Assembly (NCBI GenBank): GCA_010015805.1
Contig: ML978122.1
Location: forward strand, 2,080,453 to 2,144,452
DNA length: 64,000 nucleotides
From: Rhizodiscina lignyota
Taxonomy: Eukaryota
Direction: 5' to 3'
This document shows positions 2,706 to 40,435 of the stretch, piece by piece (positions within the stretch are counted from its first letter, which is position 1; every line of letters begins with the position of its first letter). The notes under the pieces are model-generated. The model made no database searches and was not told the origin of the DNA. It worked only from the letters and a program-made list of their open reading frames with translations. The translations under genes and the position numbers were made by a program.

Positions 2706-3626
2706 ATGGCTTCAGCATTTCAGCACCCAATGAAACCGTTCGTCATTTTTGCCCAGATCCAGACAAAGGGAGAAGACAAGATCAAAATAGTACGCACTTA
2801 GCCCAGAGTTGCATTTTCATCGAGTAACATAGATGCTTCAAGGAGCTCGAGAACGTTGGACCCGTAGTCAAGCACGAGAGTCAGCAACCTGAATGCGACT
2901 CATATTGTTTTCTGCAGCCTCTCGAGGGCAACAAGAGTCGCTTTACAGTCTATGAGGCGTCAGGTTTCTTCCTCCATCATTGAAATATCTGTTAACCCCT
3001 TGCAGTTACGATAATAAGGAATATGCTATGAATAACCACCGAAACTCTGACGCATTCAAAGCATTTAGGGAGTTAGTATAACACTGACTCGGAAGGGAGA
3101 CGGCGTCACACATGCTAAAGAGTCCTACAGAGTAGTGGCAAGCTCTGATACTCGTCAATCTCTCGATGTTCAGGCCTTTACCCCGAAAGGAGGTTTCCTC
3201 TGGCGTTCAGAGCCCCCGAAGCTTCCCTTGGGCGATCAATTTATCTGGATAGCATTCCTGAAGGCGACACCTGGCAAAAGAGACGAGTTGATCTCGTACG
3301 CTCTCACGCACGCAGGCAACGTTCATCGGACCGAGGACGAGACTTTGAGCTTTGTTGTGCTCGAGAAAGACGATGACAAGGAGACAGTTGTTCTCTTTGA
3401 GCGATACACGAGTGAGGAGTACTTCGAAAAGGTCCACAAAACCAGCGAGACTATGCAGCAATACCGTGCCAATGTACGTCCACGGCCCCAAAGATGCTAT
3501 ACGAAGCCCTCTGAAATAGCATTGCTGATTGAAGTATCGCAGATTGGCCCAATTCTTGCAGACAGAAACAGTGAGGGGTTTGCAGCGAGAAGGGGCTTCC
3601 TTGACAAGCGAGAGGCGGTCGCATAA
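2706..3626 (+). CDS. Tandem ABM (antibiotic biosynthesis monooxygenase / dimeric alpha+beta barrel) domain protein, about 5 exons
   Basis: Spliced by eye: MASAFQHPMKPFVIFAQIQTK..ECDSYCFLQP..FTVYEAYDNKEYAMNNHRNSDAFKAF, then a second unit FIWIAFLKATPGKRDEL..VVLFERYTSEEYFEKVHKTS. Both units carry the ABM 'ExYx(n)H' pattern. The first acceptor site is uncertain. Confidence 0.7.
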
Positions 3627-5192: not shown

Positions 5193-6846
5193 CTACCAAT
5201 TTACACTCCTCGTGAATCCGGTCCATCCGTTCTCGATATCTGCGCTGCGGCGAAAAAGGACAATGGCAGACCGCAATCCGTCAAATTCGAGTGAGATATC
5301 TCGGAGCCTACACTCTTCAGGTATATCTGCCATGTGCTGCACACTGCGTGTCTCTCCTTGAGCCCACAGCCTTTTTCCCGCAAGCTCCTCTTCTATCATC
5401 ATCGCCTCCAAAGCAATGCGGCCCGCAATCACGCTGTCCCAGACGCCTTCTCGTCGTGGAAAGTTGAGCATCACGTAAATTGCCTGGATTAGACGCATAT
5501 TGCGGAGGTCGTCCATTCTCGAGCCGTTTAGAGAGACTAGGTCCATTCTTCAGTAATTCAGTGTCGCTACTGAGTTGCCGCGAGTATTGTACGATATCAT
5601 CTGGGGGTGCATCGTAAATGGTGCACGAGAGTCTGAAAATTTCTCTGAATTCGGGCTGTAGCTCATCCCAGTCCATTTCCTTGCGGTCGAACCCTATTCC
5701 TGCGATTTTCAAGAATAGCTTGATAGACACACGGTAGATGCCGAGGACTTGGAGACCTCTGATATCTTTCTTCGTCAGTGAGCTACCCTGATTATGTAGC
5801 ATTCCGGTGCAGGCTGCCTCTCCGGCGGTGAACTGGACTTGTATCGAATTCAAGTGCCGTAGAAGATTTGACGGGCCTAATCCTTGCGGAGAGTCCGGAG
5901 ACTGCATGACCAGAGTTAAGACGTAAAAGAGGTCTACGAAAAAGGCGAGCGCCGCAGGAGTAGAATCGAATGTGTTTATAGGCGCTTGCGGAACGGAAAT
6001 CTTCCTTGAATGCCAAGTCTGGAGGTTCTCCAGGCTCAAATAAAAGCGTGATTGGACATTGAGACGTTTGAAGAGTGACCGAGCAGCAGGAAATGAGATT
6101 GGAATTAAATCATCCAAGTCTTGACGTGTCGCTCGGATCGTTTCAAGTCGTTCAAGAATCTTCATGCCAGTTTCTAGATGAATCAGAGTCTGTTCTTGAT
6201 GTCCTTGTATGCTCGATAAGGAGGGGAAAAGCACACAGACCCCCATCGTAATTGCTTGATCTGCCGACTGCCCAGAACCAGACGTCATAATAATCTGTTG
6301 TATCGCTTTGTTGTATTGCTCTAATGCAAATCGCGTATTTGGATCTGCAGCATCTGCAGCAACGGCCGTCTCCTTCCCGGACCAAAACTTCTGTTGCATA
6401 GTACCAAGCGCAGCCGCAGCATGTCTTACTGCTGGGAAATTATGTGATGCTCTTAGGACGTCACAGCGCCAGAATGTGTCTGCTTCGGTAAAGTACTCCT
6501 TCGACTCCGCCGCCGTGCAAATCCGGAAATGGTAGAGACCCTTCTAGTTCATGTTGCGTCGCACTTGGTAAATCGCTCAACGGTGGTCTCAGCGAGGCAG
6601 GCGTCTCAGAGTCTGAAGACGCATTTGCGTTTGGATTGGTATATCCATCGCATTTTCGTCCCGTAGAGGTGCACTTGACACAAGCCGGCTTCGCTTCATC
6701 GCATTTAATTCTGCGAATCCTGTCGACCTTGTTAGTCTTGCCACACAATAGAAAATGATTGTGATGTCGTGCCTGCAAGTGATGCATCCAGTTCTCGTCT
6801 TGGGTGCCCAGGCACGCTGACGGGATTTGACATTGGCCTTGTCCAT
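5193..6846 (-). pseudogene. Zn2Cys6 transcription factor with two frameshifts
   Basis: KTRTGCITCR/IRRIKCDEAKPACVKCTSTGRKCDGY (split by an intron), middle region PAVRHAAAALG..ALEQYNKAI, and C-terminal PRREGVWDS motif. Frame changes occur near 6540 and near 5500-5550. Confidence 0.8.
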
Positions 6847-7296
6847 GATTTTACTTTCGCGGGCAAGACGAGGTTAGCCTTGCCCATCTCGCGCGCCATA
6901 GACATTTTAAAAAGATTAAGAGAGGAGTCACCCCAAATTGTAGAAGGCAGGTGGTAGGGGGTTTCAGCATTGGTGAAGTACGAATACGACAGGCCGCCGC
7001 TCCGGACCATCAAGAGGGCTTTTAGTAATTCCTCGGGATCTCGGTGTTACAGTTGATGTACGCATCAGAGGGAGGCAAAAGCTTTCTTAACGGAGTATAA
7101 TTGCTGGATTCTGATTGACAGCCGGATTTGGGGGCCAAATAGGCCTTGGGAGTCTGGAACGTGGTGCAGTGCAGCTCAGGGGGGGTGGCGTCGGTCTACA
7201 GCAGGCTAACCTGATTGGGATGGCGGGGGATACCGGAATATGTCCCAACTTCAAGTTTTATACCACGCAGAATGAGGTGTCTTCATACACATCAGG

Positions 7297-9302
7297 ATGA
7301 GCTCCACCGCTAGCAAAACTTGCCCGGAATGCAGGAAGATCAGGTTTGAGTACTTAGAGTCAAGAGACGAAAAGACAATTCGAGAATATTTCACATTCAG
7401 CCAACTTGTGAAGCCAGCTTCAATGGGCTGCCTTTTCTGCGCTTTTGTTCACACGATTATTACTGAAAGGGTAACGAAAAGGAAACGCGATCCTTATCGG
7501 AACATGGAAATGGTGGTAGAATTTATTTCTGGGGTCTCAGCGGATTTTGAGGCCAACATCAGATGTGTATTCTTCCCGCGAAGTCCGGCAGTATTTATGT
7601 CATGGCGGATGCATCAAGAGGAACACACAATGGTCATGATGGGCACCCTTGTTGCCAAAGCAGGTAAGACTTCTTTGATTCTCATATACGAAAAGCTATC
7701 CTCATATACGGACAAAGATGGCCCGGCTGCGAAATTCGTATCAGACAGAGTAGTTGAACCCGACGTAGAAGACGCGATTCAGTTGGCCCAGACATGGATG
7801 AATACCTGCCTCTCTGGACATACCAGATGCTCAGCGAGTGAGGTACCTCTACTTCCAATTAGAGTGGTCGACGTAGAAGTTACTGCTACGCTGAACTGCA
7901 AGCTTCACATCTCTTCTCCTGGCGAACGCAGAAATTATCTTACGCTAAGCTATTGCTTGGGAGTAGGCGAGAAGGGCCATGTCCTTACGCAGAACAATCT
8001 GTCCGAAAAGGAGAGTAGTATTAGCATAGACCTCCTCCCAAAGACCCTACAGGATGCTGTTTTCATAACTCGGAAGTTGCGGCATCGGTACCTTTGGGTA
8101 AGATTTTGCAGGATTCGCTAGAGGATTGGGAGACCGAAGCCGCAAAGATGGGCGACATCTACGCCAATTCAACACTCACTATCGCAGCGGCCAGTGCAGC
8201 AGACGCAAGGCAGGGCATTTTGCTGCCTCGCCCCCCTACATTACCAGAATCACCTCCATTGCAGTTCACTTGCCCCGACGGGAACTCGGGGACAGTATTT
8301 CTTCGGCACACAGATCCTTCAGATGTGGAAGAACCACTGAATCTGCGGGGATGGGCTCTGCAGGAAAGACTTCTCACGCCTCGAACTCTATTTTTCGGAA
8401 CTCACCAGATGACATGGGAATGTCGTGAAACAGTTTTCGCTGAAGGCAAGAGTGACTACAGTGGAATACGATGGTCCGGTAGAAATCCTCTGTCTGATAT
8501 CCATCCATTTTCACAGACGCTGCCTCTCACATCGAGTGAAGTTCTTGCTAGGTGGGAGGAAGTCGTTTCAGACTATACATCACGCAATCTTACACTCGGA
8601 ACCGACAAGCTACCTGCGCTAGCAGGCATCGCGGCTATATTTAAGAGTGCCTTCGGGAATGACGGGTATCTTGCGGGGCTGTGGAAATCGAGTTTGCCTT
8701 GCGGACTCCTCTGGGCTGGTATCGGTAGCGAACATCTGGAGCGCAAACTGTTGCCTTATCGCGCCCCATCCTGGTCTTGGATGTCTGTTGATGGATCTGT
8801 CACGACCATGAGACGGGACTCAAAGGACCCAGTGTGCGCGACAATCATTCATGCAGGTGTAACAGGACGAGCACCACAGAGCCTTACTTCCTGCCTTAGT
8901 GGTAAACTGATTGTGCGGGCCCCGGTGAGAAGACCATCGAAATCCAAGCTCCTGTATAATAGCGCTAATCCTCGTCACAATATACGAGGGTTTTATTTCG
9001 ACGGAGGAGAGAATGACGGGCCCAATGAACCTCTAGAGAAATACAGAGAGCAATCCTGTGGGATTTGTGAATTCGATGACTACGATGAGATGCTTCAAGC
9101 AGACTCAACTCAACTCTTGTGCTTGAGGAAAACATTAAAAAGGGGCCTCATGATCTTACCGGTGGCAGGAACGGATGTATTCCGGCGAGTGGGATATTGC
9201 ACAATTTATGAGGAACCTCTTAAATTTACAATAGAGAAGCCAGAAGACCGGTATGAAGATTTATCTAAGGAGTGGCCAGTCCGGGAAATAAGGCTCGTCT
9301 GA
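7297..9302 (+). pseudogene. HET (heterokaryon incompatibility) domain protein, frameshifted in the domain core
   Basis: LPIRVVDV, YLTLSYCLG, LPKTLQDAVFITRKL..YLWV, then in another frame ILQDS.EDWETEAAKMGDIYANSTLTIAA, PLNLRGWALQERLL, DKLPALAGIA, YLAGLW, RAPSWSWMS. The frame break is near 8098-8103. Confidence 0.8.
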
Positions 9303-9769: not shown

Positions 9770-12214
9770 CTAGCGCGACACACTGCCGCTCCTCCGGAAG
9801 GCACTGGTGATAGAACCGTGCCTGGCTTGCTCAAGGCCAGCAGCGACGCTCTTGCTCCTCGCCTGTTCGCTGGCAAGGTTCTGGTCAAAGTGGTAAAGCG
9901 GCTCGAGCTTGGCGTTCTTGTTGCGGAAGATATAGCGCTTAACGAAGTACGGAAGAGAGTGGCGGAGCTGGTACTGCATGTGCTTCGCGGTCGGGACGGC
10001 GAAGACGTAGTCGAGCTCCTCAAGAGTTCGCTGCTTTGTCTCGGGAACCAAGAAGAAGATCATGATGAGTGCGGTAACATTGAGAGCGGCGTAGAAACCG
10101 AACGCGCCGGTGGGCGTCATGGCTGCCACCATGCGGGGCCAGGTGAGACCGAGCACGAAGGCCCAAAAGAGACAGGTCGCGACGGCCCAACTCATTCCGA
10201 CTTCCCTGTGGGAGAGTGGGAAAACCTCTGTAAATGCGTTAAATCTTCGAGCGGCATGAACAGAGAAGGAGAGGATGAGAACATACCAGCAGAGTAAGTG
10301 AATGGCACTGGACCTTCACCAGGGCTGTAGAATGCTGCGAAGAGATAGATGAATGTAGCGACTAGGCCAAGATGCGCTTTATTGTCCGCAGGGATCAAGA
10401 AACAGAGGCCGCAGGCCAGCAGAGTCCAAGCCATGTTGGGAAAAGTGAAGAGCAGGAGAGCGCGCCTCCCAAAGGTGTCAATGGTCCAGACGGCCGGGAA
10501 AGCGAAGACAAAGTTGACAAGACCGAAGCCAAAAGATGCAACCAGGGCATTTGATGCAGTGGCACCGGCCTGCTGGAAGACGGAGGAGCTGTAGAAGGCA
10601 ATGATGTTGATACCACACATCTGTTGGGCGATCATGACGGTAAATGAAGCGAGAGTAGCGCGACGCACACGCGGGATGGTGAAAAGTTCAATGAAGCGGG
10701 TAAGATAGGTGCTTTTTCCGATAATATGAGCCTCCTCGACGAGTTGTGCGTGAACGTAGTACAGATCACGTGCGGCTTGAAGAGGTGTGTTTCGCAGACG
10801 GAGGAGCGACTTGTAGGCATTTTGATAGCGGCCCTGGATCATTGGTTAGCGTTGAATATCTAATTAGGACCTGCAACACATCTGCTTACCTTCTTCATGT
10901 ACCATCTTGGTGATTCGGGACAAAAGAACACACCGAAGACTAGTGGCACAGCTGGAATGAAGGCGGATCCTGGGAGGAAAGAACGTTAGGTGCTTCCTTA
11001 GCCCTCCCAAAATTATGGGACTCACCGAACTGAAGACGCCAGGCAATGGCGCCGGTATTGCGGACCGCGAGATTCGCGCAGAAACCGAGGAAAATGCCAA
11101 ACGCGGTCCAGAGCTGCCAGCACATAACCAGGCCACCTCGGACGGCGGCGGGGACGTTTTCCGCAGCTGAAGAATCATGTTAGTCCGAATAAGAAACAGC
11201 GTAATCAAAGTATTCAATATTTACCGTATATTGGGACCGTGCTAGCCTTGCTGCCCATGCCAATGCCGAGTAACAAACGCGTGATGAACAGTTGATACCA
11301 TGTCTACAGGTGCGTGATGTTAGCCAGTATATTCAAGAGCTTAGGAAATTTGCGAGTGACATTGGATTTCCCTACAGGAACCTGCAGCGGTAATGATATG
11401 AAAATTGAAACGGAGTATTTACCTGGGAGAAGCCAGAACCAATAACTGAGAGGAGGCAGAAGACGGCAGAGAAGAAGATGGTACCTCGACGACCAAAGTA
11501 ATTGTTCAATGGGTCTAAGAAGGCATTCTCGTTAGTTTCTCGATGCATTCAGACATTGAGAATGGCCATCTTACCAGAGATCCAGGCACCAAGAAATGCA
11601 GAGGCCAAGTATGGAGCGCCATTGATCAGTCCCACAAGCCACAGGTTGTGGATATAGTCCGGGTTTGGAACACTGTTGGTAGGAGCGTCGAGGTATTGAG
11701 CGTCGCTGATTCCGAAAGCTTGTGGGAAGGACAAGTTCGCGCCATTAGAGCCAGTCTGATCCCAGCCTTGGACAGCCGCGCCAATAGAGCAGAGGATGAC
11801 TGTGAAGTACATGGCCTTTGGCTGGCGCCACTTGTGAAGGACCTCATTTTGGAGAGCCTCCTTCTCCACATCCGTCAAGCCCTCAACCTCCTCAAAGCGT
11901 GCGGGATCCTGAGCGCAAAGAGCACCCTTCTTGAGAATATCGGTGATATCTGTCATTTCACGCTCCTGTGCGAAGTCCTCGACCTGCTGCAAGAGAATTT
12001 GCTTGGGGATGCCAGCCAATGGGTTCTTGATCCTGCACATTAACACTTATTAGCAAATGCAAACACATAGCGCATTATTATGAGTCAGTGTGTACCTGGC
12101 TTCCTTGTTACTGTTGAGGTTGACCTCATCGTGACTGAAACCCTTCTCGTTGTAGGCAGTGTCGCCATTCTCAAAGGTCTCGTTCTGGACCTTCTTCTCC
12201 TCAATGTCCGACAT
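9770..12214 (-). CDS. MFS sugar porter (polyol / myo-inositol transporter-like), multi-exon
   Basis: Start MSDIEEKK at 12214. Motifs: [72 protein letters not shown]. Confidence 0.93.
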
Positions 12215-26379: not shown

Positions 26380-26553
26380 ATGCCGCATGATGGAGTGATA
26401 GTCACCTTGAAATTCGTGGTGTGAGAGGAGTGTCGGTCCATGATTACACGTGGCGAAACCAAACGGCGAAAGTGCGGCTCGGGCTTTGCCTGTCCTGCCC
26501 CATCCAGATCGTAATCATATCAGCGCATTCCCGATATGCAGAATGCCGCAAAC
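26380..26553. promoter_or_regulatory. Three GCCGCA/TGCGGC sites upstream of the aspartate kinase
   Basis: ATGCCGCA at 26380, TGCGGC at 26473 and ATGCCGCAAAC at 26543; TGATAG at 26396. Confidence 0.55.
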
Positions 26554-26738: not shown

Positions 26739-28465
26739 ATGAGTCCCGCTATCCCCTGCAAGAGAGAATGGGTTGTGCAGAAGTATGGAGGCACGAGTTT
26801 GGGGAAGCTCCTCGATACCATTTGCGGTGAAATCATTCCCGCCTTTTCATACCAGTTCAACGTAGCCGTCATATGTTCCGCCATTTCCGGAAAGTCGAAG
26901 GCCTTAGGCACCACTAGCTTGCTCATTCAATGCATATCCGCCATCTCTTCATCAACAGAAGGTGCCGAAAACGAATTGAACGACACACTGGATCTTTTGA
27001 AGGACAACCATCTTAACATCATCAACTCCATTGCATCAGGGCTGAATCCAGATGCCCAGCAGATATGTCAACGGGCCGCTAACGCGATATCGAAGGAGTG
27101 CGAGCAGATGCGTGCGTTCATGCTGGCAGCACAAACTGTTGGCGAGCTTTCACCTCGTTCAAGAGATCGAATATTGGCACTTGGAGAAAGGCTTGCTTGT
27201 TCGATAGTCGCCACCACACTTCAAGTCAAGGGCGTTCCTGCGCAGCCCGTGTTTCTTGATAATCTCGTCGAAGAAACCTTCGGCCCATCGGTAGCTACCC
27301 AGCGAGACGCGTTCGAAACCCTCGGAGCAGACGTATACCCACTTTTATCACAACAAATTGCACGGAAAATCCAAGACTGCGATGGCGCTATTCCCATTAT
27401 TACAGGTTTCTTCGGCATCGTGCCGAACTCATTGATAGCTACCGTTGGCCGAGGGTACTCCGACTTCTGCGCAGCCCTCTGCGCAGTCGGCTTAGGGGCT
27501 CGCGAACTCCAGATATGGAAAGAAGTTGATGGAATCTTCACGGCAGATCCGAGGAAGATTCCGTCCGCTCGTTTATTACCGGCAGTAACATTCGAAGAAG
27601 CTGCCGAGTTGACATACTACGGTAGCGAAGTCGTTCATCCGATGGCGGTGGATCAAATACGTCACGCCGGTATTCGCTTGCAGCTGAAGAATGTATTCAA
27701 TCCTGCTGGAGCTGGCACTAGAATCTATCCAACGAGCACTCCATTGCCGTCCCCTCCAACCTCGGAAGCCCCCACTCCTCGGAGTACATCGCCTTCACGA
27801 GCTTCAGCGCCGCCTCTGGCATGCATGCTGATCGGCTATCACGGAAATCTGGAAAATCGTCGTACTCCAACAGCAGTTACTGTCAAGGACCCTATCACGG
27901 TTGTGAATGTCCTGTGCAACCAAAAGCGAAAGTCTTCCACGTTCCTTCTCAACGTTCTGGAGCAAGTAGCCAAGCACAATCTGGATATCGACCTTGTCAC
28001 CAGCAGTGAAAAGAGCGTCAGCTTTGCACTGGAGAATGTCGACGACAGGCAGCGGCTACGGAGGCTCATCACCGTGCTGGAGGACTTCGGCTGTGTCACT
28101 GTGTCCGAGGACCGAGCGATAATATCAGTGGTCGGCCACAAGATGAGGAACATGGTCGGAGTATCAAGTACGTTTGTGATTGATAACATTTCGGGACATA
28201 ACTGACCATTTCAGGCGAGATCCTCTCCGCGTTAGCAGCGGCCAAAATCAACGTTCATATGATAAGCCAAGGTGCCAGCGAAATCAATATCTCGTAAGTC
28301 ACATATTTTCCGCTTAGATTTCGACCACTAACGGGTATTCATAGTGCGGTCGTGCGCAAGGATCAAGCACTACTCGCGATGGAGGTCATTCATCAAAATG
28401 TCTTAAAGATTCCATCAAGGACCGAAGTAGAGAATAACTTCATCAAGGGTCCGTGGCTGTATTAG
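26739..28465 (+). CDS. HOM3: Aspartate kinase (HOM3 family) with divergent ACT domain, 3 exons
   Basis: WVVQKYGGTS, AVICSAIS, GERLAC, ITGFFG, VGRGYSD, IWKEVDGIFTADPRK, EEAAELTYYGSEVVHP, and after the introns INVHMISQGASEINIS. Stop is at 28463-28465. Confidence 0.93.
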
Positions 28466-29202
28466 TACCTTTGCGGTAAAGCGTCGTGAGAAAAGCGTCC
28501 TTCTGTATGATTTCATTAGCATGGCATTTGGCGCGATGGATGAGATATGTGGGAAATTTCTATTTCAGCTGCGTTACATATGCACGCAAAGTTTCGCGGT
28601 CAAAGCGCAGGTGTCGGGGAACACTTTAGAGTAGAGTCGAGCTGCTTACGCACAATTGTTGCGCGCTCTCATGTAAATTACCTTAAATATAAGGAAAATG
28701 ACCTTTGCAAAGTACGTCGCAGAGATAAATCAACTATCGTTCTCAGTGTTTGTTGATAAGAATACCGTGGATGGGAGGGAAGTGCTAGCAAAGCTCGCGA
28801 GGAAACAAGTTTTGCTGGCCAAGTCGTCAGGCTCGAGCAGCTTCCGCGAATACTCAGACTATTAGCGAGTGCTATGTGCAATTCGCGGAAGCCCGTCATT
28901 GACGCACCGCCTACTGCCCTCGAGCTCTTCTTCGGGAAACATTGAGCGGCTCTATCAACATGTGCGGATACTTGCGGGAAACTGGGTCGAAGAAATGGGC
29001 AACTCTCTTTTATTCCTAGCACACGGTTGGTGAAAATTTACCGTGATATATGGATTAGCCTTTCTAACAGGACCTTTCCTGCAGTCTAATTCTTCGTCCA
29101 TAAAGGTGATGACCTCTTGTAACTCCTTGACCCCAAATACGAAAAGCACAACACGATATGTACACAAGGTAACAGAGACAAAACTCTTTAATACAGGTTG
29201 AA

Positions 29203-30673
29203 TCATTCCTCCATTTCGCCGACCATGCTCGCCCCATTTGCGTCAATATGAAGGTCAGCATTTCCGGCTACAAGTGGCTCACCCTCGTATATCTGAGGAT
29301 GCTTGTTCTGTAAATGCTCGATCATCAATCGGTCCAAGTCCTCAAAGTCAAGCAGAAAGCCGTCGTGTCCGTTTGTCGATGAGAGCATGTGAAGTCTCGC
29401 GTCCGGTAGTGCATTGGCTAACTGTCTCTGCTCCTCTGGTGTGAAGAGAATGTCAGATTCAACGCCGACGACTAACGCGCCTGGCTCGACCGCTGAGAGA
29501 ACGGATTCGAAGTCGTCCTCAGTAGGGCATTCAGCACCATTCGAATTAGTTGCCCGGCCTCGACATATGTCGTGAGAGTCCATCTTGTTCAAAAGATGCA
29601 GATAACAGTTCGCGTCGAATCTGGAAAGGAATTTGGAGCCTTGATAACCAAGATAGCCTTGAACGGAGAAATGCGGATGTAGTTTCCGTTTATGGGAATC
29701 GGAGTTGCTGCTATTGACAGCTACGTTGCTCACTGAACTGTGAGAATGATTTGACTGCTTCGACTTCTTCGTGACTGTCTTGTTAGGTTTCCGTCCAAAT
29801 CGCGCCTCAAAGCTCGTGGATGATCGATAGGTCAACATAGCAATCATGCGAGCCGCGGCCAATCCAGAGGCAGGCTGGCTTGAAGGATGTGGCTCGTAGT
29901 GCCCGCCGCGGAAGAGAGAGTCGTTCTGTATACATTGACGTTGTGTTTCGGCCCAGGCAATTCCCCATGCGCTATGAGAGAGCGATGTAGCGATCGTAAC
30001 GAGGGTCTTAACATAGTGTGGAGGCGTGCAAAGTCCCCATTCCAGAGCCGTCATGCCTCCCATTGAGCCGCCAACGACTGCAGCTACAGACGAGACACCA
30101 AGGGCGTCAAGGACAAGCTTTTGAGCACTGGTATTTCTGTTAACGACTGACATTGTAGATTCCTTGGAAACTGATCAGGTGGCATGCTTACTTCACATCA
30201 TCTCTGGCAGTAGTTGCAGGGAAGTCAGCTCCATACGGTTTGCTTGTCGCAGGGTTGATGTTGAGAGAAGAACTGCTCCCATACGGCGATCCGAGGCAGT
30301 TTCCACAAAAGATGAAGAACCTTGTCGGGTCCAGTGTCTTGCCAGGACCGAAGAGAGGATGCCACCAGTCAACCAGGTCGCTGCTTCCCGTCAAAGCATG
30401 ACACACGACGAGGACGTTATCCCTCTTGTCATTTAACTTCCCCCATGTCTTGTACGCAATCTGGCAGTTTGAAAGTGTCTCGCCAGATTCTAGGGTGAAG
30501 GAAGGGATGACTGCGAACTTCTGGTTACGGATGAGGCGAGAGTAATGATGCTCCTGTGCGAGACTGGATTCAAGACGAGCCTCTGCATAGTCTTGCGACG
30601 TGAGACGCATCGATAATGTTCGGTTTGACAATTCTTGGACCGTGGTCAATGGAGATTGTAGGGAGGAAGACAT
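29203..30673 (-). CDS. MET2: Homoserine O-acetyltransferase (MET2/MetX family), 2 exons
   Basis: ATG MSSSLQ at 30673 (30709 is a GTG). Motifs: FTLESGETL, CHALTGSSD, CGNCLGSPYGSSS, catalytic GGSMGG, RFDANCY, ESDILF, GHDGFLL. Confidence 0.93.
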
Positions 30674-31032
30674 GTTGCTAACTTGCGTCGTCGACGATGA
30701 GAGATACACTAGGATGCAGAAGCGATGTGTTCATTTTCTGATAGTAACAACCAGTGGTTTTACCTTTATCAGTAGTCGAAGTACCAATATCGGTATCTAA
30801 TGCAGTTCAGAAACCTTGTTGAAGTTTGCGGCATGGTGCGGCACGTTTTCTACGTTCGGGCTTTGCTTTCTGACGTGCATTCGATCCTTGAACCCGCAAA
30901 ATCGAGAACGTCAACAAACAGCTTCGGCGAAGATAACGTCGCAATGCCGCATAACTCCTTATTTGGTAGCTTCTTAAGCAGCCGTAAGGGTCTAATGTCT
31001 CTGGGCTGATCAGCACGCGATAAAGAGAAATC
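30674..31032. promoter_or_regulatory. Bidirectional MET2/nitrilase promoter with two inverted ATGCCGCA sites and four HGATAR sites
   Basis: TGCGGCAT at 30827-30834 and ATGCCGCA at 30944-30951. GATA sites at 30739, 30766 (reverse), 30931 and 31018. Confidence 0.6.
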
Positions 31033-32615
31033 ATGTCTGAAGGCGCAAACGGGTTCGTGAAAGTCGCTGCTGTTCAGGCTGCACCTATCTCATTTGATTT
31101 GCCAAAGTCCCTGCAGAAGCTATCTGGACTGTCTGCAGAGGCAGCATCGAAGGGTGCTCAAATCGTTGTGTTTCCGTGAGGAGCTGTTCTCAGCCCTGAC
31201 GCAAGATCAAACGGCTGATACCCAAGTAGGGAAGGATTCCTAACAGCTTATCCATGGAGATATGCCTTTGATGCAACGATTGGTGCACGAGAGCCTCGTG
31301 GTTTGTGCAGACATTATTTTCCAAGATATTCGCATTCTGATGTACGTTCGCAGGTCGAAAGTGGTATGCACGGTATTATGAATCGGCTGTAGGCATCCCG
31401 TCGCCCGAATGCGATTTTCTCGCAGAAGTCGCAAAGAGCAATCAGATCTATTTATCAGTTGGTATCATCGAAAAGGATCAAGGGTGAGTCATGCCTTTGT
31501 CCGATTGTTCCGATGGTCCCGCCAAGCCCATGCAACGATCGTGTCAGAGTAGATCGAATGGTTCCAGAGAAATGAAATCAACAGGATATGGGTCCACATC
31601 AATAGCTTATTCCTGTAACTTTGCTAACGTGTTCTTCGTGTGCGTAGGACGCTATATTGTACAGCACTGCTGCTGGGAAAGGATGGCACTATTCTGTCTC
31701 GGCACCGTAAAGTGAGTAATCGAGAACTCTGAAATTGCGATGGAAGATTTCGCTGACTGTTGACACAGTTGATCCCAACAGCAGCAGAACGCCTTGTCTG
31801 GGGTCGTGGTGCTGGCGATGGATTGAATGTAGTGCAGACGGAACTCGGAAAGATTGGAGGATTAATTTGGTGAGTCGCACGACCAAGCCTGACCACGAAC
31901 GATGACTCTAATATGAGAACTGTAAAGCTGGGAGAATTATATGCCAGCTGCAAGATTAGCACTATATCAGCAAGGTATCGAGTAAGTGAATACGAATCAA
32001 AAGATGCAAATTGTGCGTTAATTCGGAGACCTGCAGGATATATTTAGCGCCCAATGCGGATGATCTTCCCGAGTGGACTGCTACAATGAAGCATATTGCG
32101 AAAGAGGGAAGATGCTTCGTGGTGAATGTCAATCAATTCTGCAAGGTCGGCAAGAACTTCGAATGGAGGAGAAAATCACTGACGATGTGCTCAGGTCTCG
32201 GATTTCCCCTCTGATTACCCTCCGTTTACGGAAGATCACTACGACCGTAAACCAGACGGATCTAAATGGCAGCCGGATGACATCCTAAGCCACGGTGGAT
32301 CATGTGTAGTGGGACCGTTGGGGACCTTTCTCGCGGAGCCAGTATGGGATAGAGAAGAGATCGTCTACGCAACTCTCCGATCAATGGATATAGTTGAAGC
32401 ACGAGTAAGTTGCCCATGTACATTCCAACGCAAAGACCTGCTGACCAAGTGAAAGCTCGATTTTGACCCTGTTGGAAGCTATGCACGACCCGACGTATTG
32501 TAAGTTGTCATGTTCGCTTCGAATTGGATGCGGATGCATTGGTTAACAGCGTATTAGCTCCTTGACAGTGAATACAAAGCCAGGAGTCAATGTTCGTTTC
32601 GATGGGAAGCTGTAG
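31033..32615 (+). CDS. Nitrilase (plant NIT4-like branch), 10 exons, largely missed by the ORF track
   Basis: Spliced by eye: [23 protein letters not shown] (Glu), [22 protein letters not shown] (Lys), [14 protein letters not shown] (Cys), [35 protein letters not shown]. Nine GT-AG introns. Confidence 0.92.
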
Positions 32616-33410
32616 TAGAATCGGAGTTTGAGCTGGACGATGATGCATAGACTTAAGGTACGGAGTATGGAGTATTGTAGGCGGTTAGCATACGTTGAAT
32701 ACAATATCTACAAAGCTACTCAGGCCTTGTGCATGCCTTCAAAACTTTTGCAAGTAGACATGCAGATACCATTGGTAGGGCTGGAGTAGACGAGTCTTCG
32801 CGCTGGGGAACGCCAGGACGCGTGACGCGTGCTACGGATCGCGAAATGGCGCATCTTTGTTTCCCCGATGTCCGAAGGTTCATTTTTGGTAGCGAGTGAA
32901 ACTCCAACGACCTCGGGAGTTTTTGTCCGCTCAATGAGCATATTCTCTATGCCACAGCAAGCCGAATGAAACATTCTTTCTACGCCTCGCATGGTGATCC
33001 GGATCTATCATTTCAAAGTCGTGTGGATCTTGTTGAACTTTTTCGGCTTCCTGCTACACGATTTAACCGACGCTACGCCGTTGCGTGAACAGCGCCAACC
33101 GTAGGTTGCACGCCTGTCTCAATTGTCTCTCTAGTTCTTCTCTATGTGGTCTGAATATCATCTGATTCATTTTGCCTCGTTTGATGGAGCTTAGCGGAGG
33201 GAGTGTGCAGTCCTATGGGTGAGCGATAAGGCCGCAGGGATCGTGTGATTGCGGGCCGCATTGCTTTTCTTATCGGCATCGTTGGCATCTCACTGTCGCA
33301 CGACACCTCCAGTCAATTGAGCAGCGGCCTTTTCGGCGTTCATGAGGACAGAGTCTGTCTTTATGTCGTAATTGCGCCCTTTCGTACTCAACAGGCGGAA
33401 AGTAAGCAAA

Positions 33411-36056
33411 ATGCAAACGACTAAGAGGAAGTTCGCAACTCCACCCGTGAAGTCCGCTTGTACAGCATGGTACGAACACCGCGCCCTAAGGATTACCGAC
33501 TTTAGAAGCTGACGTCCCGTCTCTTTGCAGTAGAGCATCCAGGACTCGCTGTGATGGAAAAGAAAAGTGTACACCGGTATGACTGAACTCCACAACTAAT
33601 TTCCGCTATAAATTGGCTAACACACAAGTCAATAGTGTGAGAACAAAGGCAGAGAGTGTGTTTATATTCCAAGCAGAAGAGGAGGACCAAGGATATCACG
33701 GAGAAAGAGAGCTCAATTGTTAGAGCAATCGTCGTTGACCGAGCGTACGATTTACGAAGAAGATAACGATACAACTTCGTCGCAACGAGGAGGCACTGCG
33801 CACTCGACAGATTTGTGGCCAAGTGCAGTGCATTTCTCTGAGAGTGTGCTTGCTATGGTCAATCCAGGCGCCGGCCTAACGCGACAGAACAACTCGCAAG
33901 ATTTATTTCAGGATTCCGATATGATCTTTGATAGTATATTTAATCTTCCAACTCCGCCGTCGAGCGCCCCAGAATCGAATTGTCAAGAGGATCTTCCTAA
34001 ACCGACCACGCCGGTGGTCCGAACATATGCAAATGATATAGAAATGTAAGACTCCACGACAATACGACTCTAGAATCCAAGCGGCTAACTCCTACTGCTA
34101 CAAGGTTGAACGGATACTATATCTTCATACACCAATACTTCCCAATTCTACCTCCTCCAGTATCTTCCACAACGATCGTTGACAACTCTATCGCTCGCTC
34201 TCAGGATGAGTTGGATGATGGCGATGTAACTTTTTGTCCTTCTTCGCCGCTGAGTCTGGCGATAGCTGCTATCTTAGCATTGATTCCTCACGATCAATGC
34301 CCGGAGCCTTCTAGCGAGGACGCCATCGTATTTCGGAGGCGTTACTCACACTTCCTTGTTCAATCCGCTATGGAGAGCATTGATATCGAATCTGAAATGC
34401 CCGGGTCGTCTACGTCTCCTGATAAAGCGCTTTCTGAGGACCACGCTGGATGCCCCCGTGCTCCGTTTCACCCGATGGTTCCAGTTGAGCTAGAAAGCGT
34501 AATTGCGTTGGCTTTGTTAAGCATATATGAATACTCTCAGCGGGGAAATATAGCCAGAATGCGGAATAGAGCCGGGCAGGCCCTAGTTAATGCCATGGAT
34601 TTGTGCTTGCACTCAGCCGGCGAAGAGTACGACCACTTTGAAGAAGCAAGAAGGCGAGCCTGGTGGATGACGGTGAGCATATCCCATGGCAAATGCAAAG
34701 TAATAAGTACAATATGCGCTGATTCAAGTGATGACAGTACGTGTGTGTTTGTCAAGGAAGTATCTATTCAAGCACGGTTAGTTTCATCTCACACATCGAA
34801 TATCGTAATCGGCTCCCCATCTTTCGGGCCAGAGCCACTGTTCTCTACCAGCTTTTGGTGGCTGCTACGCCGTGCCCTAACTCTACACAATATTAAACTC
34901 GCTCGAACGAAACAGTTTGCTGAGTGCAGAAGTGTACTTCTTCGCCAGTCGCTCTAAAACTTGCCTTCCGTTTAGAAAGAGTAAAACTGACTATATCTAC
35001 AGCCGCCGATAATATCCGTGCTAGACCCGTCATTTACCAGACAATATCCCTCCATTGCAGCCGATGCGGAGGCCTGGCCGTTCTTTATCGAATCACAGCA
35101 AACAATATTACGAGCGACTCAGTTCGTTGCAGATCTCAACAAGACGTTGGAAAAGGGCGAAGATCTCCAGATTATACGTACACGCATGCAGGAGCTGGAA
35201 TCTGATCTGGTGCCACTGGTCGCCAAAGCGGATGCGTTTGCCCAAGGCATTCCGAGCTTCAACCCGATCGATTCCGAGGAAGAAATCGTTGCGGAAACGT
35301 TGAAAGTGATGGCCCGAATCAAGATCAACAGGTATGTTCCGTATTCAGGTACGAATTTATTTCTAACGTCACCGAAGCGCTCGAATTAAGCTACATCGAT
35401 ATTGCGCATTTTTCGATCACCCGATCTTCAGCCGCAAGCACTGCGATCTTAAACCTGTTCCACTCCCAGGATCAGTTGGCCGAGGCCGAACAGCCTCTAT
35501 CTCCTCAATAGGATGCGGTTGCAGTGGATCCTTCGGCATGATGATCGAATCATCGCCGGGAGGCGGAATCCCCTCAAAGGACTTGCCCACGTTTTCAAAC
35601 GATGACGATGCACTTGAGCAGTTTCCTTTCAGCAGCCGAACTTCGCAGAAGATCTGCCTCAAAGCGGCTCTGAATATCGTTCAGTCGTTTGAGGCTTTGC
35701 CCTATCCGTTTGTAGTCTCAAACAAGCAAATTCCTCGTACAATGCCCTCCATGTCTTGTTGTGCGATGCAATCGAGCTATGCTCTTTTGATGTTGCGCCA
35801 GAAGACGTTGTCAGAGCAGAGGTGTTCGAATGACGTATACGTTCAGACATTGTTTGTCAAGATTCACAGGGCGCTGCAGTCCATTGCAGGGACGTTGGAC
35901 AACTACGCGATAGCTGCAGAAGCAATAGCTGGAATGCGAGGTGTGTATACTCCACAAGGTCTTGGGTTGAAGCTGTGGAAAGCGTCCGACAATGGAGAAG
36001 CTGATTCGCTTTCAGATCAAATACGAGAGTCGATACAAGTTCACTTTGGCGGTTGA
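33411..36056 (+). CDS. Zn2Cys6 transcription factor with fungal-specific TF middle domain, multi-exon
   Basis: MQTTKRKFATPPVKSACTAC/RASRTRCDGKEKCTP/CENKGRECVYIPSRRGGPR across two short introns, then YYIFIHQYFPILP, LLSIYEYSQRGN, EARRRAWWMT, ARIKLHRYCAFFD, PRTMPSMSCCAMQSSY. Confidence 0.9.
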
Positions 36057-36474
36057 AGCCGCAAGCGAGTAGAGAGGCCTTGGCTATTGGCAAGGGTGGA
36101 GGCAGAGAAGGAGCGGCATTACTGCATCGAATGCGGTGAAAGCAGTCAGTGCGAACAGTGGTGCAGCCCCTTTGAACTTGGTGCCCCTTCGAGTACACAT
36201 CTTAGGTGCTGCGAACACGTGCGCCCAACAAGCTGGCAGTCTTAACTTTGTATTATTACTGGTATTAGCGCGTTGCATGCAAGCGGCAAATAACAGCGGT
36301 ATTGGACGCGGAAATCCGTGGATTTGGTGGAAGCACTGCAAAGTACAGGAAACGCTCTGGAACTCTTGGAATCGGCGGCAGTGTTCTTCAGGATGATGGC
36401 GGCTGCCGGAGTGGGATAGCGATAGGGGAGCGAGCATGCTGGTGGCATCCAGTTTGAATTAGGTTTCCGCTCCC

Positions 36475-36754
36475 CCGCATTTGCGGCGATGTTCAGATAG
36501 AAACGATTGTAGATAAACTTGCAGCTCTTTCGCGCGAGTGGCATACTTGGACAAAATACAACGAACACCTGAGCAAGTTCAACGCCGCATCAACACAAAG
36601 CCCTTGCAAGCCGCTTTACATCTCCCCCACACATGAGAACGTCTCTTATCAGTGCCCTGTCTATTTCTTCCTGTATGTGGGATCCAATTGTATGGGATTA
36701 CGGTGTGCTAGGATCCGCCGGGATCTCTCGGTGTTTGAACTATTATCTGCGGCA
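36475..36754. promoter_or_regulatory. GCCGCA/TGCGGC and GATA site cluster upstream of the MET17 paralog
   Basis: CCGCATTTGCGG at 36475-36486, GCCGCA at 36584 and TTATCTGCGGCA at 36743-36754. Further GATA sites at 36495, 36511 and 36646. Confidence 0.55.
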
Positions 36755-36974
36755 CAAGGATCCAATGATGACCGCAAGGTACATGGTTACCCAAGTTGGC
36801 AAGGTCGTCTAGAAGCTATGTTCTGGAATTGATAGTTCACAAGTATATCAATGGCAGTTTAGAATGTTTATTTCCTGCCTCATTGTCATTGCAAGATATC
36901 ATTTCCATTAGCCACCGCTACATCCTTTCATTGAATTGACATCTTACGACATCTCTTTATTTTCGACCAGCAAA

Positions 36975-38585
36975 ATGACTATCTCCGGTTCTCTCGCCAA
37001 TGTCACCAAGTAAGTCACCCCAATCAAAATAATAGCCTCCGCTTTCTGCTGCAATGCCAGAAGGTCCGGCCTTTCAATTTATTTAGAGCCTTTTCTAATG
37101 TGTTGAATTAGGCCCCCCGCTTTCTCCACAATCTCTCTTCATGGTGGTCAAGAGCCAGATCCTGTAAACGGATCCCGTGCTGTGCCATTGTTCCAAACAT
37201 GCGCATACAACTTCACCGACGCCGCCGATGGTGCAAGCAAGTTCGCCTGGTCGAAGGATGGATATGTATACACTCGCATGGGCAACCCAACAAATTCAGT
37301 CTTTGAGACTCGTATGGCGATGCTCGAGGGAGGCGTCGGTGCAGTTGCAACAGCTTCTGGCCATGCTGCACAATTCATGGCGCTTACCAACTGCTGCGCA
37401 CCTGGACAGAACTTTGTCAGCACAAGCTGGCTTTATGGCGGCACTTACAACCAATTCCGTGTCTACATGAAGAAGTTCAACATCAACGTCAAGTGGGTTG
37501 TGGGCAATGACCCAGCCGACATTGACCAGACGATCGACGAGAACACACGATGCGTTTACATCGAGACGATTTCAAATCCGAAGCACAGCGTCCCAGATAT
37601 CACTGCGATCGCCGAAGTTTGCCATAAGCACGGGATACCTCTCATCGTCGATAACACTTTCGGAATGGGCGGTTATATTGCAAGGCCGATCCAGCTTGGT
37701 GCCGATATCGTCACACACTCTTGCACGAAGTGGATTGGTGGCCATGGTACTAGTATGGGTGGTATTGTCATCGACGGTGGCCACTTTGACTGGTCTGCTT
37801 CTGGAAAGTTCCCAGAATTCACAGAGCCGGCGGAAGGCTACCACGGCATGCGCTTCTGGGAAACATATGGCACTCGCGCTCTCTCAGCGAAGCTCAGGAT
37901 GGACTCTATGCGCGACCTTGGTCCGTGTATGAGTCCTTTCAACGCCTGGCTCTTCCTTCAAGGTCTTGAGACATTGTCGCTTCGAGGCAAGCGGCATTGC
38001 GAGACTACTCTGCAACTTGCAGAGTGGCTCGAGGCTCACCCGTCGGTCAATTGGGTTCTGTATCCAGGTCTGAAGTCCCATCCAGACTATGCACACGCAC
38101 AGAAGACGATGCCGAATGGACAAGGTGGTGTGTTGACATTCGGTGTGGTAAGTCCAATTCATTCGATCCCTTAGAGAGGGTCGCTCTGACAAAATCTTGT
38201 ACAGGCCGGCAGCATCGAGCAAGTTCGCGCAGTTGTCGATAACCTCAAGCTTTGCAGCCATCTCGCCAACGTCGGTGACGCGAAGACGCTCATCATCCAT
38301 CCTTGGGTGACAACACACCAACAGCTCCCAGATGAGGAAAAGATCAAGGGCGGTGTAACACCAGACCTTATCCGCATTAGCGTAGGATTGGAAGAGTTTG
38401 AAGACATTCAGCATGACTTTGAACAAGCCTTTGAAGCCGCTGGCCTACCAGTTGCGGACAAGACAAAGCAAGACCCATTCCAGGCGGCTATGAACTTGGT
38501 TGCGGGTGGCTTCATGAAGAACAAGGCGACCGGCGCACCAAGACCAGGGACTGACGGGACTGTGGTTGAGAATGGGGCGCATTAA
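36975..38585 (+). CDS. MET17: O-acetylhomoserine sulfhydrylase-like PLP enzyme (MET17/CysD paralog), 3 exons
   Basis: [54 protein letters not shown]-lysine motif [44 protein letters not shown]. Confidence 0.92.
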
Positions 38586-39430
38586 AGACGACGATGAATT
38601 GATGTTAACTAATTTCATGACCTGTGAATACGGAGTATGCAGAGGGCTCTCGGAACGAAAGGGATTTCGGAAGAGGCGTTGGGTTAATTTCGGAAATCTT
38701 CGACTAATTTTCGGTTGATAGTCTGCCTCCAAATCTGTCCATTTGACTCTGAAGAGTTGCAACAAATCGTTTCCCGTCTCACTCACACGCTCTGCTGAAC
38801 CTCTTCGTGAAGCCACGCCATGCATGCTCTCTGATGCACCATTGTCTGCCCTGCATTACCTTAGAGAAGCCACAGAAGCAGAGCGATGATATATAAAAGC
38901 GGACAAGCCCGTGAGCCGGAAAATCAAGCGACCAGGGACCTTTCGTCAGCCGTGCCGGGCGGCTCCATCCGTTTCACGGTGCTCAATCACGCAGCACTTC
39001 GGATGGACTGCACTGAATATGGAAAGCATTTCGACGCTTCTACGGAACTTAGCAGTTGGCTAGTACCTGGTCTTCGCTTTCTCCGCGCTCAGCACTCTCA
39101 CTACGTCTTTAGAGTCTTCAACTCAAGGTGGAGAAATTTATCATTGGCTGTAGATCGGAACCTGAAATGGCAAGTACTGGTAAGCCGCCTGCTTGTGCAC
39201 GTATCGGCGAGAGAGATTGGCTTTGGAATTGAACCATCTTCTTGCGACAAGAAGTGTCCTGATTGGACGGACGCAGAGACGATGCTTCGGTATAACTCTT
39301 CAGTCCCACTCCAAGCGTCGTGGAGAGCTGAAAGGCTTCATCTTTTGAAGTGAGTATAAGAATTCATCCATTCCCAAGTTCTCTGTGCAAACCATCTCTC
39401 TGCTTGACCAAACAAGTCTCGAATATCATC

Positions 39431-40435
39431 ATGGCTCTTTCTGGAAAAGTTTCTCTAGTTACTGGCGGCGCGAAGAATCTCGGTGCACAGATTGCTCTCG
39501 AGCTAGCTGCTGTTGGATCTGACCTTGCGTTGCATTACAATTCAGCTAAAACGAAGGAGGATGCCGATAAGCTTGCTGAAGAATTGACGAGGAAGTACCC
39601 GAAGATCAGCGTCAAGTTCTACGACGGCGACCTCACTACCGCAGCTGCTGTCGACAAGCTATTCGCCGATGTCCTTCATGATTTTGGCAAGATCGATATT
39701 GTCGTCAACACGGTCGGAATGGTTCTGAAGAAGTCGATTCTCGACATCAGCGAGGAAGAGTACGACAAGATGTTCGCCATCAATTCGAAGGCTGCCTTCT
39801 TCATCCTCAAAGCTGGAGCGAAGAATGTGACGGATGGAGGCAAGCTGATCACTATTGTCACATCATTGCTTGCTGCTTTCACTGGGCTATACACGAGCTA
39901 TGCTGGATCGAAAGCGCCGGTTGAGCATTTTACTCGCGGTGTGTGCAAGGAACTGCAGCCCAGAGGTGTCAGTGTGAACGCCATTGCTCCTGGTCCCATG
40001 GATACACGTAAGTTTTAACTTTCTTAGATCGCGCTTGATTACATTAGCCAGGAGCACTCGCAGAGGCAATTGTTTAATCAGGCACTGTATTGACTCTATG
40101 GTGTGTTTGCTTTGCGGAGACTTCGGCCATGGCCATACGCTCCACCAAGTACCGGTATACTCTTGGCAGAAGTCAAGTCATCTGCGTTGCACAGAACACT
40201 TCCCATGACTTCTAACTTCGCCCTGGCACAGTGTGTCCAACTTGGCTGACCAGACATAGCGTTCTTTTACCCCCAGGAAGGAGCTGATGCTGTCGCTTTC
40301 CACAAAAGTCAAGGCATGGGCGGGCGTCTTACGGACATCAAGGACATCGCGCCAATTGTGCGCTTCCTCTGTACTGAAGGTAGTTGGATTACAGGGCAGA
40401 CTATCTTTGCAAATGGTGGCTACACCACACGTTAA
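39431..40435 (+). CDS. Classical short-chain dehydrogenase/reductase, 2 exons
   Basis: TGGAKNLG, IVVNTVG, catalytic YAGSK, IAPGPMDT/PFFYPQE, WITGQTIFANGGYTTR*. Intron about 40008-40259. Confidence 0.9.

Follow-up and report, generated by a model that had tools for sequence, protein, structure and literature searches.

A five-gene cluster with a NIT4-type nitrilase in Rhizodiscina lignyota and other ascomycetes, a candidate pathway for cyanide capture on O-acetylhomoserine

In the fusaric acid gene cluster of Fusarium, Fub3 and Fub5 serve as supply enzymes, and in plants the nitrilase NIT4 acts on beta-cyanoalanine. Relatives of all three stand side by side in a stretch of 64,000 nucleotides of contig ML978122.1 of the fungus Rhizodiscina lignyota (the window, in what follows), where five neighbouring genes encode an aspartate kinase, a homoserine O-acetyltransferase-like protein, a nitrilase, a Zn2Cys6 transcription factor and a pyridoxal 5'-phosphate (PLP) enzyme of the MET17 family. 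With a probability that we put at about 0.4, they make up a co-regulated and self-contained route by which a small nucleophile able to form a nitrile, in all likelihood hydrogen cyanide, is captured on O-acetylhomoserine. Such a cyanide-capture route through a five-gene set is probably undescribed so far in fungi.

The individual reactions have precedents. An O-acetylhomoserine sulfhydrylase from a thermophilic Bacillus forms gamma-cyano-alpha-aminobutyrate (Omura 2003, as cited in the accessible part of PMC9317851), and according to the portion of PMC6271081 at hand O-acetylserine sulfhydrylase takes cyanide and azide as nucleophiles, the specificity of the O-acetylhomoserine enzyme being called relaxed. 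On the nitrilase side, NitAb from Agaricus bisporus and NitTv1 from Trametes versicolor are purified fungal enzymes of the NIT4 type whose best tested substrate is beta-cyanoalanine, which NitAb hydrolyses far faster than the other nitriles tested; NitAb is reported to have more than 500 homologues in ascomycete classes that also carry the cluster considered here (PMC7503981, in the sections available to us).

Gene content and recurrence of the cluster

An earlier note on this DNA, made from the letters alone, had described five contiguous genes at 26739–38585. All five are present, intact and adjacent, and the limits agree exactly with the coordinates given there:

26739–28465, plus strand: aspartate kinase paralog, Fub3-like (exons 26739–28169, 28217–28294 and 28346–28462, followed by the stop codon)
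30673–29203, minus strand: homoserine O-acetyltransferase-like gene of the MetX/MET2 family, Fub5-like (two exons; Pfam Abhydrolase_1)
31033–32615, plus strand: branch-1 nitrilase of the NIT4 type (ten exons, 327 amino acids in the rebuilt model)
33412–36056, plus strand: Zn2Cys6 transcription factor with zinc-cluster motif, the presumed pathway regulator
36975–38585, plus strand: PLP enzyme of the MET17/O-acetylhomoserine sulfhydrylase family, of a distinct clade (exons 36975–37010, 37113–38147 and 38205–38582, followed by the stop codon)

The kinase gene model yields the public protein P0261 of 542 amino acids letter for letter, matches Pfam AA_kinase (E 4e-34) and ACT, and scores 301 bits against NCBIfam TIGR00657 (cut-off 209). 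The model of the PLP gene is likewise identical to a public protein (P0224, 483 amino acids) and matches PF01053 with an E value of 6e-104. In the acetyltransferase, the open reading frame (ORF) of which shows the GGSMGG motif of the nucleophile elbow and a GHDGF motif, the best-fitting NCBIfam models are those of the bacterial MetX homoserine O-acetyltransferase.

The linkage of these genes is more than chance, because it recurs in many other fungi. The tie to the nitrilase, which the earlier note had left to be looked for elsewhere, is conserved across five ascomycete classes (Dothideomycetes, Sordariomycetes, Eurotiomycetes, Lecanoromycetes and Leotiomycetes) and on metagenome contigs, and the carriers are spread patchily and very widely over mixed ecologies. 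For about 31 named taxa an identical length of the longest contig goes with two or all three of the kinase, the nitrilase and the PLP enzyme, which apparently share a contig there; the count is a proxy and not a direct look at the DNA, and some of the apparent shared contigs are small, 14 to 62 kb. Searches with a nitrilase exon and with the kinase recover the same taxa as the search with the PLP enzyme. Adjacency, judged from consecutive accessions or locus tags, is seen in Paecilomyces variotii, with GAD93980 for the nitrilase, GAD93981 for the PLP enzyme and GAD93985 for the kinase in strain No. 5 and consecutive locus tags in seven further strains, in Pycnora (M1827_002179, _002180 and _002182), in Thermoascus thermophilus (VTN02DRAFT_845 and _848), in Microthyrium (the run KAF2670352 to KAF2670356), and in Colletotrichum jinshuiense and Fusarium phalaenopsidis. 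The same kind of evidence comes from Lepidopterella (OCK74948 and OCK74950) and Dendryphion (KAH7110546 and KAH7110548); the corresponding accessions of the species of the window itself are KAF2103141, KAF2103143 and KAF2103145. Gene models in which neighbours have been merged are collinear with the window as well: nitrilase, regulator and PLP enzyme in Fusarium solani, regulator and PLP enzyme in Penicillium expansum, nitrilase and regulator in Cladophialophora, and kinase and PLP enzyme in Thermoascus crustaceus. Some orthologs already bear the automatic database names FUB3 or FUB7. Among the ten acetyltransferase relatives looked up there is no accession from a cluster-bearing species, and the evidence for the linkage of the acetyltransferase therefore consists of metagenome loci and of gaps in the accession runs.

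A scan of metagenome contigs gave 14 fungal-type loci, 13 of them at least 75% identical to the PLP enzyme and one, L005, at 62%; their gene content was determined by local tblastn. Within 11 kb, two independent contig types (L001/L002 and L013) have the complete set of five, arranged otherwise than in the window, and L008 carries four of the five; in L001, L008 and L013 the acetyltransferase ortholog adjoins the nitrilase. L075 combines a kinase-like gene with the nitrilase and the PLP enzyme, L014 and L005 hold the kinase and the PLP enzyme before their contigs end, and L007 holds the regulator and the PLP enzyme before its contig end, while L004 and L038 are too short for gene content to be judged. 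The flanks vary from locus to locus, with a chaperonin and a tRNA-splicing endonuclease beside L013 and unrelated genes beside L001. Given the other gene orders and the differing flanks, the five genes are therefore seen as a compact unit moving or retained together. No sixth gene, be it a polyketide synthase (PKS), a nonribosomal peptide synthetase (NRPS), a transporter or any other enzyme, is conserved with the five in the orthologous loci, and the flanks of L001, L008, L013 and L075 hold no PKS/NRPS-like gene. At L075 (12908–19666) a Zn2Cys6 regulator different from that of the cluster, a flavin adenine dinucleotide (FAD) oxidoreductase and a major facilitator superfamily (MFS) transporter come after the nitrilase and PLP genes.

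The kinase, acetyltransferase and PLP genes appear to behave as patchy paralogs and not as the housekeeping orthologs of HOM3, MET2 and MET17. For the kinase, one relative stands at 69% identity and the others at 55% or less (about 50%), all of them from cluster-bearing taxa, which would be unexpected for a housekeeping gene of a dothideomycete; neither the kinase relatives nor those of the PLP enzyme follow the species tree or are universally present. The PLP enzyme, at 69–87%, is far more conserved than the kinase. In gene models of two Fusarium species the kinase is merged with aspartate-semialdehyde dehydrogenase domains, and in one Xylaria model with a short-chain dehydrogenase (proteins P0380, P0360 and P0346), so that extra cluster members may exist in some lineages; the fusion to aspartate-semialdehyde dehydrogenase domains points to the aspartate-to-homoserine branch.

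Nitrilase, PLP enzyme and promoters

The exons of the nitrilase gene were fitted to the Paecilomyces ortholog P0122 (325 amino acids). In a nine-exon model 245 of the 325 positions are identical to P0122, and the catalytic triad Glu48, Lys135 and Cys170 is intact, the cysteine codon being restored across an intron. When compared with solved structures, P0122 scores 306 bits against plant NIT4 (6i00), next 163 bits against cyanide dihydratases and 118 bits against cyanide hydratase. The assignment of the nitrilase to the NIT4 type made in the earlier note is thus borne out by a wide margin for the ortholog. Searching the PDB with a single nitrilase exon of 70 amino acids gave no match, and a protein atlas lookup returned generic CN-hydrolase clusters only. 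The public record of the window nitrilase (P0187, 252 amino acids) skips several exons, whereas the ten-exon model of 327 amino acids is collinear with P0122.

The PLP enzyme belongs to the OAH/OAS (O-acetylhomoserine/O-acetylserine) sulfhydrylase subfamily by NCBIfam TIGR01326 (597 bits, cut-off 495), and several database names of its orthologs read O-acetylhomoserine/O-acetylserine sulfhydrylase. The S/T-K-W-I-G-G-H-G motif could be aligned, with the PLP lysine kept in all 12 fungal loci examined. Its best 21 matches, 69–87% identical, come from ascomycetes of patchy distribution; the next full-length matches, at 62% or less, belong to basidiomycetes, other early-diverging fungi and bacteria. 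A tree built from 24 members of the clade and 87 ordinary relatives shows the clade as monophyletic, with a support of 1.0 and a stem of 0.31 substitutions per site. Ten positions divide the clade from its ordinary relatives, and eight signature residues (N31, D51, K55, W58, M82, M227, Y264 and W391) are kept in every fungal locus covering them, including the lone copies of the PLP gene and the divergent L005. D51, K55 and W58 flank a conserved Phe a few residues ahead of a Tyr-x-Arg motif; in the 87 ordinary relatives, yeast Met17, Fub7 and two bacterial enzymes the same positions hold His, Leu and Leu. We take the Phe and the Tyr-x-Arg motif to be Phe50, Tyr59 and Arg61 of methionine gamma-lyase, whose loop (the lid loop) presumably closes the active site of the neighbouring subunit. 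W391 is common to the PLP enzyme and Fub7, with Tyr in yeast Met17 and Ala in the bacterial enzymes. This pattern of residues fits a change in what the active site admits, without pointing to a particular substrate.

The cluster includes its own regulator, as the earlier note had claimed: the six-cysteine zinc cluster CX2CX6CX5CX2CX6C can be read complete and intact at 33412–33660 once two short introns are removed. The regulator is collinear with the regulator part of the merged gene models P0244, P0195 and P0153 of other fungi, and the ortholog inside P0153 carries the middle domain PF04082 of fungal-specific transcription factors, the exon ORFs of the window regulator giving no Pfam match at all. 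The promoters hold two exact copies of a candidate cis-element:

26479–26489, minus strand: candidate cis-element, the exact 11-mer GCAAAGCCCGA, about 250 bp upstream of the kinase start
30856–30866, minus strand: GCAAAGCCCGA again, within the divergent promoter of 360 bp that separates the acetyltransferase and nitrilase genes

On the window alone the recurrence of GCAAAGCCCGA is not significant, three matches being found at up to one mismatch and 18 of 100 shuffles reaching three. Its 9-base core CAAAGCCCG, first noticed in three of four divergent promoters examined, occurs in the same acetyltransferase/nitrilase divergent promoter of L001 and L008 and once each in cluster promoters of L004, L005 and L013/L014. 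In 221 kb made up of the window and ten non-redundant fungal loci, all seven occurrences of the core fall in cluster promoters, which constitute 8.7% of that sequence, with 1.7 occurrences expected anywhere; none lies in loci where the PLP gene stands alone. The shared promoter motifs announced in the earlier note are therefore confirmed for the kinase and acetyltransferase/nitrilase promoters and not for the remaining two genes, as the region upstream of the regulator has no copy of the shared element and that upstream of the PLP gene only a partial one. Read as its reverse complement, the element contains the triplet CGG, the usual half-site of zinc-cluster proteins, and the cluster Zn2Cys6 regulator may bind it.

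Other promoter searches were less productive. The heptamer ATGCGGC, present in four promoters of the window, was rejected, occurring at the level expected after testing all 7-mers and being unconserved in orthologous promoters; scans for CGG-N-CCG spacings came out empty, as did those for exact 8- to 12-mers in common. A 23-base stretch, AAAGCAATGCGGCCCGCAATCAC, occurs twice in identical form, at 5411–5433 on the plus strand and at about 33249–33271 on the minus strand, that is, inside an unannotated ORF of 408 codons (5317–6543, no Pfam match) and about 150 bp upstream of the regulator start; it holds a near-palindrome with inverted CGG/CCG, and the sequence around the two copies is dissimilar. 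At L005 (1–3566) the PLP gene, a more distant clade member (62% identity) keeping the signature residues, lies divergently beside the kinase with the core CAAAGCCCG between them. L005 comes from the same assembly as L004, which has a copy of approximately the 80% type, and two PLP sub-clades may coexist.

Housekeeping genes flank the cluster in the window. One side has Clr2, a TRM5-like methyltransferase and an EF-hand protein; at the other end lie a short-chain dehydrogenase and MoeA/gephyrin. There is no PKS, NRPS or transporter near the cluster and no PKS/NRPS-like gene anywhere in the 64 kb. As a possible sixth member we considered the short-chain dehydrogenase at 39332–40018, which follows the PLP gene directly. 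None of the orthologous loci has a counterpart of it, nor does it match the dehydrogenase merged with the kinase in the Xylaria gene model, and it probably lies outside the cluster. Elsewhere in the window a HET-domain (heterokaryon incompatibility) gene at 7276–9302 is split over two ORFs, with a sugar-transporter fragment (10192–10845) and an ABM monooxygenase (3069–3626) nearby. At 62854–62913 a 15-base unit, ATGCGGCTGCTGGAC, and its variants form four to five tandem copies within the ORF of an mRNA triphosphatase on the opposite strand.

Possible functions of the cluster

As no nitrile-building gene is conserved and just two of the enzymes are dedicated ones, the nitrile must arrive with the nucleophile. 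The lack of any further conserved enzyme makes two steps starting at O-acetylhomoserine the most natural reading. Conversion of cyanide to glutamate, as read in the earlier note, is supported in part and is the simplest chemistry that uses all the parts; the succession of steps is inferred, and so are nucleophile, intermediate and product. The cluster kinase and the homoserine O-acetyltransferase would provide more O-acetyl-L-homoserine, with primary metabolism contributing the two intervening steps. The MET17-like PLP enzyme would then swap the acetate on the gamma carbon for cyanide to give 2-amino-4-cyanobutyrate, from which the NIT4-like nitrilase would produce glutamate and ammonia by hydrolysis or glutamine by hydration. 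Expression would be switched on by the Zn2Cys6 protein, whose probable target is the conserved GCAAAGCCCGA element. From glutamate the tricarboxylic acid (TCA) cycle leads back to aspartate, and the route could thus run as a cycle releasing the nitrogen of cyanide as ammonia.

Several observations weigh against this proposal. The PLP enzyme keeps every general feature of the sulfhydrylases, passes their subfamily model and may still use sulfide; its scores against Fub7 (503 bits) and yeast Met17 (511 bits) are almost equal, and the Trp391 common to it and the C–C-bond-forming Fub7 would leave room for a carbon nucleophile. Its ortholog is found without the other four genes in three of the seven distinct metagenome contig types that extend 5 kb or more in either direction (L003, L006 and L015/L016), and therefore seems able to work without them; L008 lacks a kinase within 10 kb. 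Moreover, many fungi already own a cheaper enzyme for the purpose, cyanide hydratase.

The lone PLP orthologs of L003, L006 and L015/L016 would also suit a chance neighbourhood, in which duplicated methionine genes have come to lie beside an unrelated nitrilase and regulator, yet the same five genes occur together in other orders and with other flanks across five fungal classes and a conserved promoter element is common to cluster genes, so that this explanation is very improbable. The conserved sulfhydrylase features, including the PLP lysine motif, speak for a stress bypass of methionine synthesis. Here the PLP enzyme would go on making homocysteine, while kinase and acetyltransferase would act as additional isoenzymes sustaining direct sulfhydrylation when cyanide or beta-cyanoalanine poisons the normal route, and the nitrilase would only destroy the offending nitrile, for instance by turning beta-cyanoalanine into aspartate or asparagine. 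The much stronger conservation of the PLP enzyme than of the kinase agrees with it, as does the fact that aspartate, the nitrilase product, is the substrate of the kinase. So do the preference of the fungal relative NitAb for beta-cyanoalanine (PMC7503981, available sections) and the cyanide-induced bacterial cluster cioAB-dapA1-nit4, where Nit4 is found together with a cysteine synthase and an amino-acid-pathway paralog (PMC6989483, as far as the accessible text goes). The clade-specific changes beside the lid-loop Phe, however, suggest altered substrate handling, though they could also confer resistance, and no sign was seen of nitrile sensitivity in the ordinary fungal enzymes; on balance we regard a bypass as unlikely, if worth keeping in view. 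Slightly less credit still is given to an unknown non-proteinogenic amino acid, made by a PLP enzyme joining O-acetylhomoserine to a nitrile-bearing C, N or O nucleophile, with the nitrilase tailoring the product. Kinase, acetyltransferase and PLP enzyme together are known from fusaric acid as a module for supply and substitution. Fub7 and CndF are described as carrying out gamma-substitution with O-acetylhomoserine as substrate (PMC11331486, in the part at hand), Trp391 is common to the window enzyme and Fub7, the cluster has its own regulator, and L075 has an MFS transporter and an FAD oxidoreductase nearby. Against it, the five genes are accompanied by no conserved gene that could provide a nitrile-bearing nucleophile, and by no conserved transporter or other tailoring enzyme, and their carriers are very widespread and of mixed ecology.

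Two further routes, both improbable, differ in what the PLP enzyme would join. Were thiocyanate assimilated, the PLP enzyme would give S-cyanohomocysteine, the nitrilase would hydrolyse its S-C≡N group and loss of CO2 would leave homocysteine and ammonia, which would tie the nitrilase directly to methionine synthesis. What speaks for it is purely chemical reasoning: as a soft sulfur nucleophile, thiocyanate resembles the natural substrates of the family, to whose sulfhydrylases the PLP enzyme is close, and the product is an amino-acid nitrile suited to a NIT4-like enzyme. No precedent was found in full-text searches, and S-cyano amino acids tend to cyclise. A fungal copy of the plant route, to which we assign as little weight, would have the MET2-like enzyme acetylate serine, the PLP enzyme form beta-cyanoalanine out of O-acetylserine and cyanide, and the nitrilase convert it into aspartate or asparagine, to be passed on by the kinase. 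The MET2/MetX family does include the serine acetyltransferases of fungi, O-acetylserine is often accepted by MET17 enzymes, and several database names of PLP orthologs include O-acetylserine sulfhydrylase. The substrate preference of NitAb would agree with such a route (PMC7503981, same sections), but the clustered aspartate kinase points to the homoserine branch, as does its fusion with aspartate-semialdehyde dehydrogenase domains in certain gene models from Fusarium, and the best acetyltransferase models are homoserine enzymes, in a comparison set that held no fungal serine enzyme.

We thus return to cyanide capture on O-acetylhomoserine as the preferred reading. A fuller version of it, which we advance more tentatively, would make the five genes a widespread and horizontally mobile unit by which ascomycetes gain a cyanide-assimilating cycle, running from aspartate and O-acetylhomoserine through gamma-cyanation, glutamate or glutamine and a return by the TCA cycle; it would be a clustered, separately evolved counterpart of the plant route, one carbon longer, with D51, K55 and W58 setting the choice of nucleophile. 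If cyanide capture is correct, a large share of plant-, wood- and lichen-associated ascomycetes would own a dedicated route by which to tolerate cyanide and feed on it, of a kind known for decades in plants and not in fungi; crop pathogens are among the carriers, for example Colletotrichum and the Fusarium solani complex. Biocatalysis would then gain from the PLP clade a natural enzyme forming a C–C bond with cyanide at the gamma carbon, and a role would be found for hundreds of "NIT4-like" fungal nitrilases. Even if the substrate is something else than cyanide, these five genes form a compact, strongly conserved unit. As just two of its enzymes are dedicated ones, its function should be easy to settle at the bench.

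Comparison with known systems

The earlier note knew of no description of such a fungal cluster, and full-text searches, which do not reach subscription journals and authors' manuscripts, likewise yielded no paper linking a nitrilase with O-acetylhomoserine enzymes in fungi. Among fungal systems, NitAb and NitTv1 are, like the window nitrilase, of the NIT4 type, but in the available sections of PMC7503981 their gene neighbours go unmentioned and 2-amino-4-cyanobutyrate is not among the named substrates. Fub3/Fub5/Fub7 of fusaric acid in Fusarium and CndF of citrinadin share with the cluster a MET17-family enzyme that substitutes the gamma position of O-acetylhomoserine, and the clustered kinase, homoserine O-acetyltransferase and MET17-family PLP paralogs of the fusaric acid module are all present in the window. 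In contrast to the FUB cluster, the window and the orthologous loci lack the PKS Fub1 and the other FUB genes and have a nitrilase instead; the PLP enzyme, no closer by bit score to Fub7 (503) than to yeast Met17 (511), falls in a separate clade and carries D51, K55 and W58 at the positions taken by His, Leu and Leu in Fub7.

Of the bacterial systems, the gamma-cyano-alpha-aminobutyrate synthase of a thermophilic Bacillus belongs to the same enzyme family and carries out what is proposed here as the first reaction (Omura 2003, cited in PMC9317851, accessible part). It differs in being a bacterial enzyme of the housekeeping type for which cyanide is a side activity. To our knowledge, no linked nitrilase, supply genes or regulator have been reported for it. 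The cyanide-responsive cluster cioAB-dapA1-nit4 of Pseudomonas pseudoalcaligenes CECT5344 also brings together a Nit4, a PLP enzyme of the cysteine-synthase type (CysM3) and a paralog of an amino-acid biosynthesis gene; unlike the window cluster it is bacterial, has a cyanide-insensitive oxidase and a PLP enzyme of another family, and lacks the homoserine branch, and Nit4 is described as having no known role in cyanide metabolism in that strain (all from the part of PMC6989483 at hand).

A parallel in logic would be the beta-cyanoalanine synthase and NIT4 of plants, where, as proposed here, a PLP enzyme fixes cyanide on an activated amino acid and a NIT4-type nitrilase follows; the window nitrilase is a branch-1 enzyme with the Glu-Lys-Cys triad, and its nearest solved relative is NIT4. 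The plant synthase, however, is a fold-type II relative of cysteine synthase working at the beta carbon, while the window enzyme is of fold type I (PF01053) and would work at the gamma carbon; no gene of the cysteine-synthase type turned up among the scanned ORFs of the window. The expected product would accordingly be one carbon longer, glutamate or glutamine and not aspartate or asparagine, and in contrast to the plant route the genes of the window are clustered with their own precursor-supply genes and regulator.

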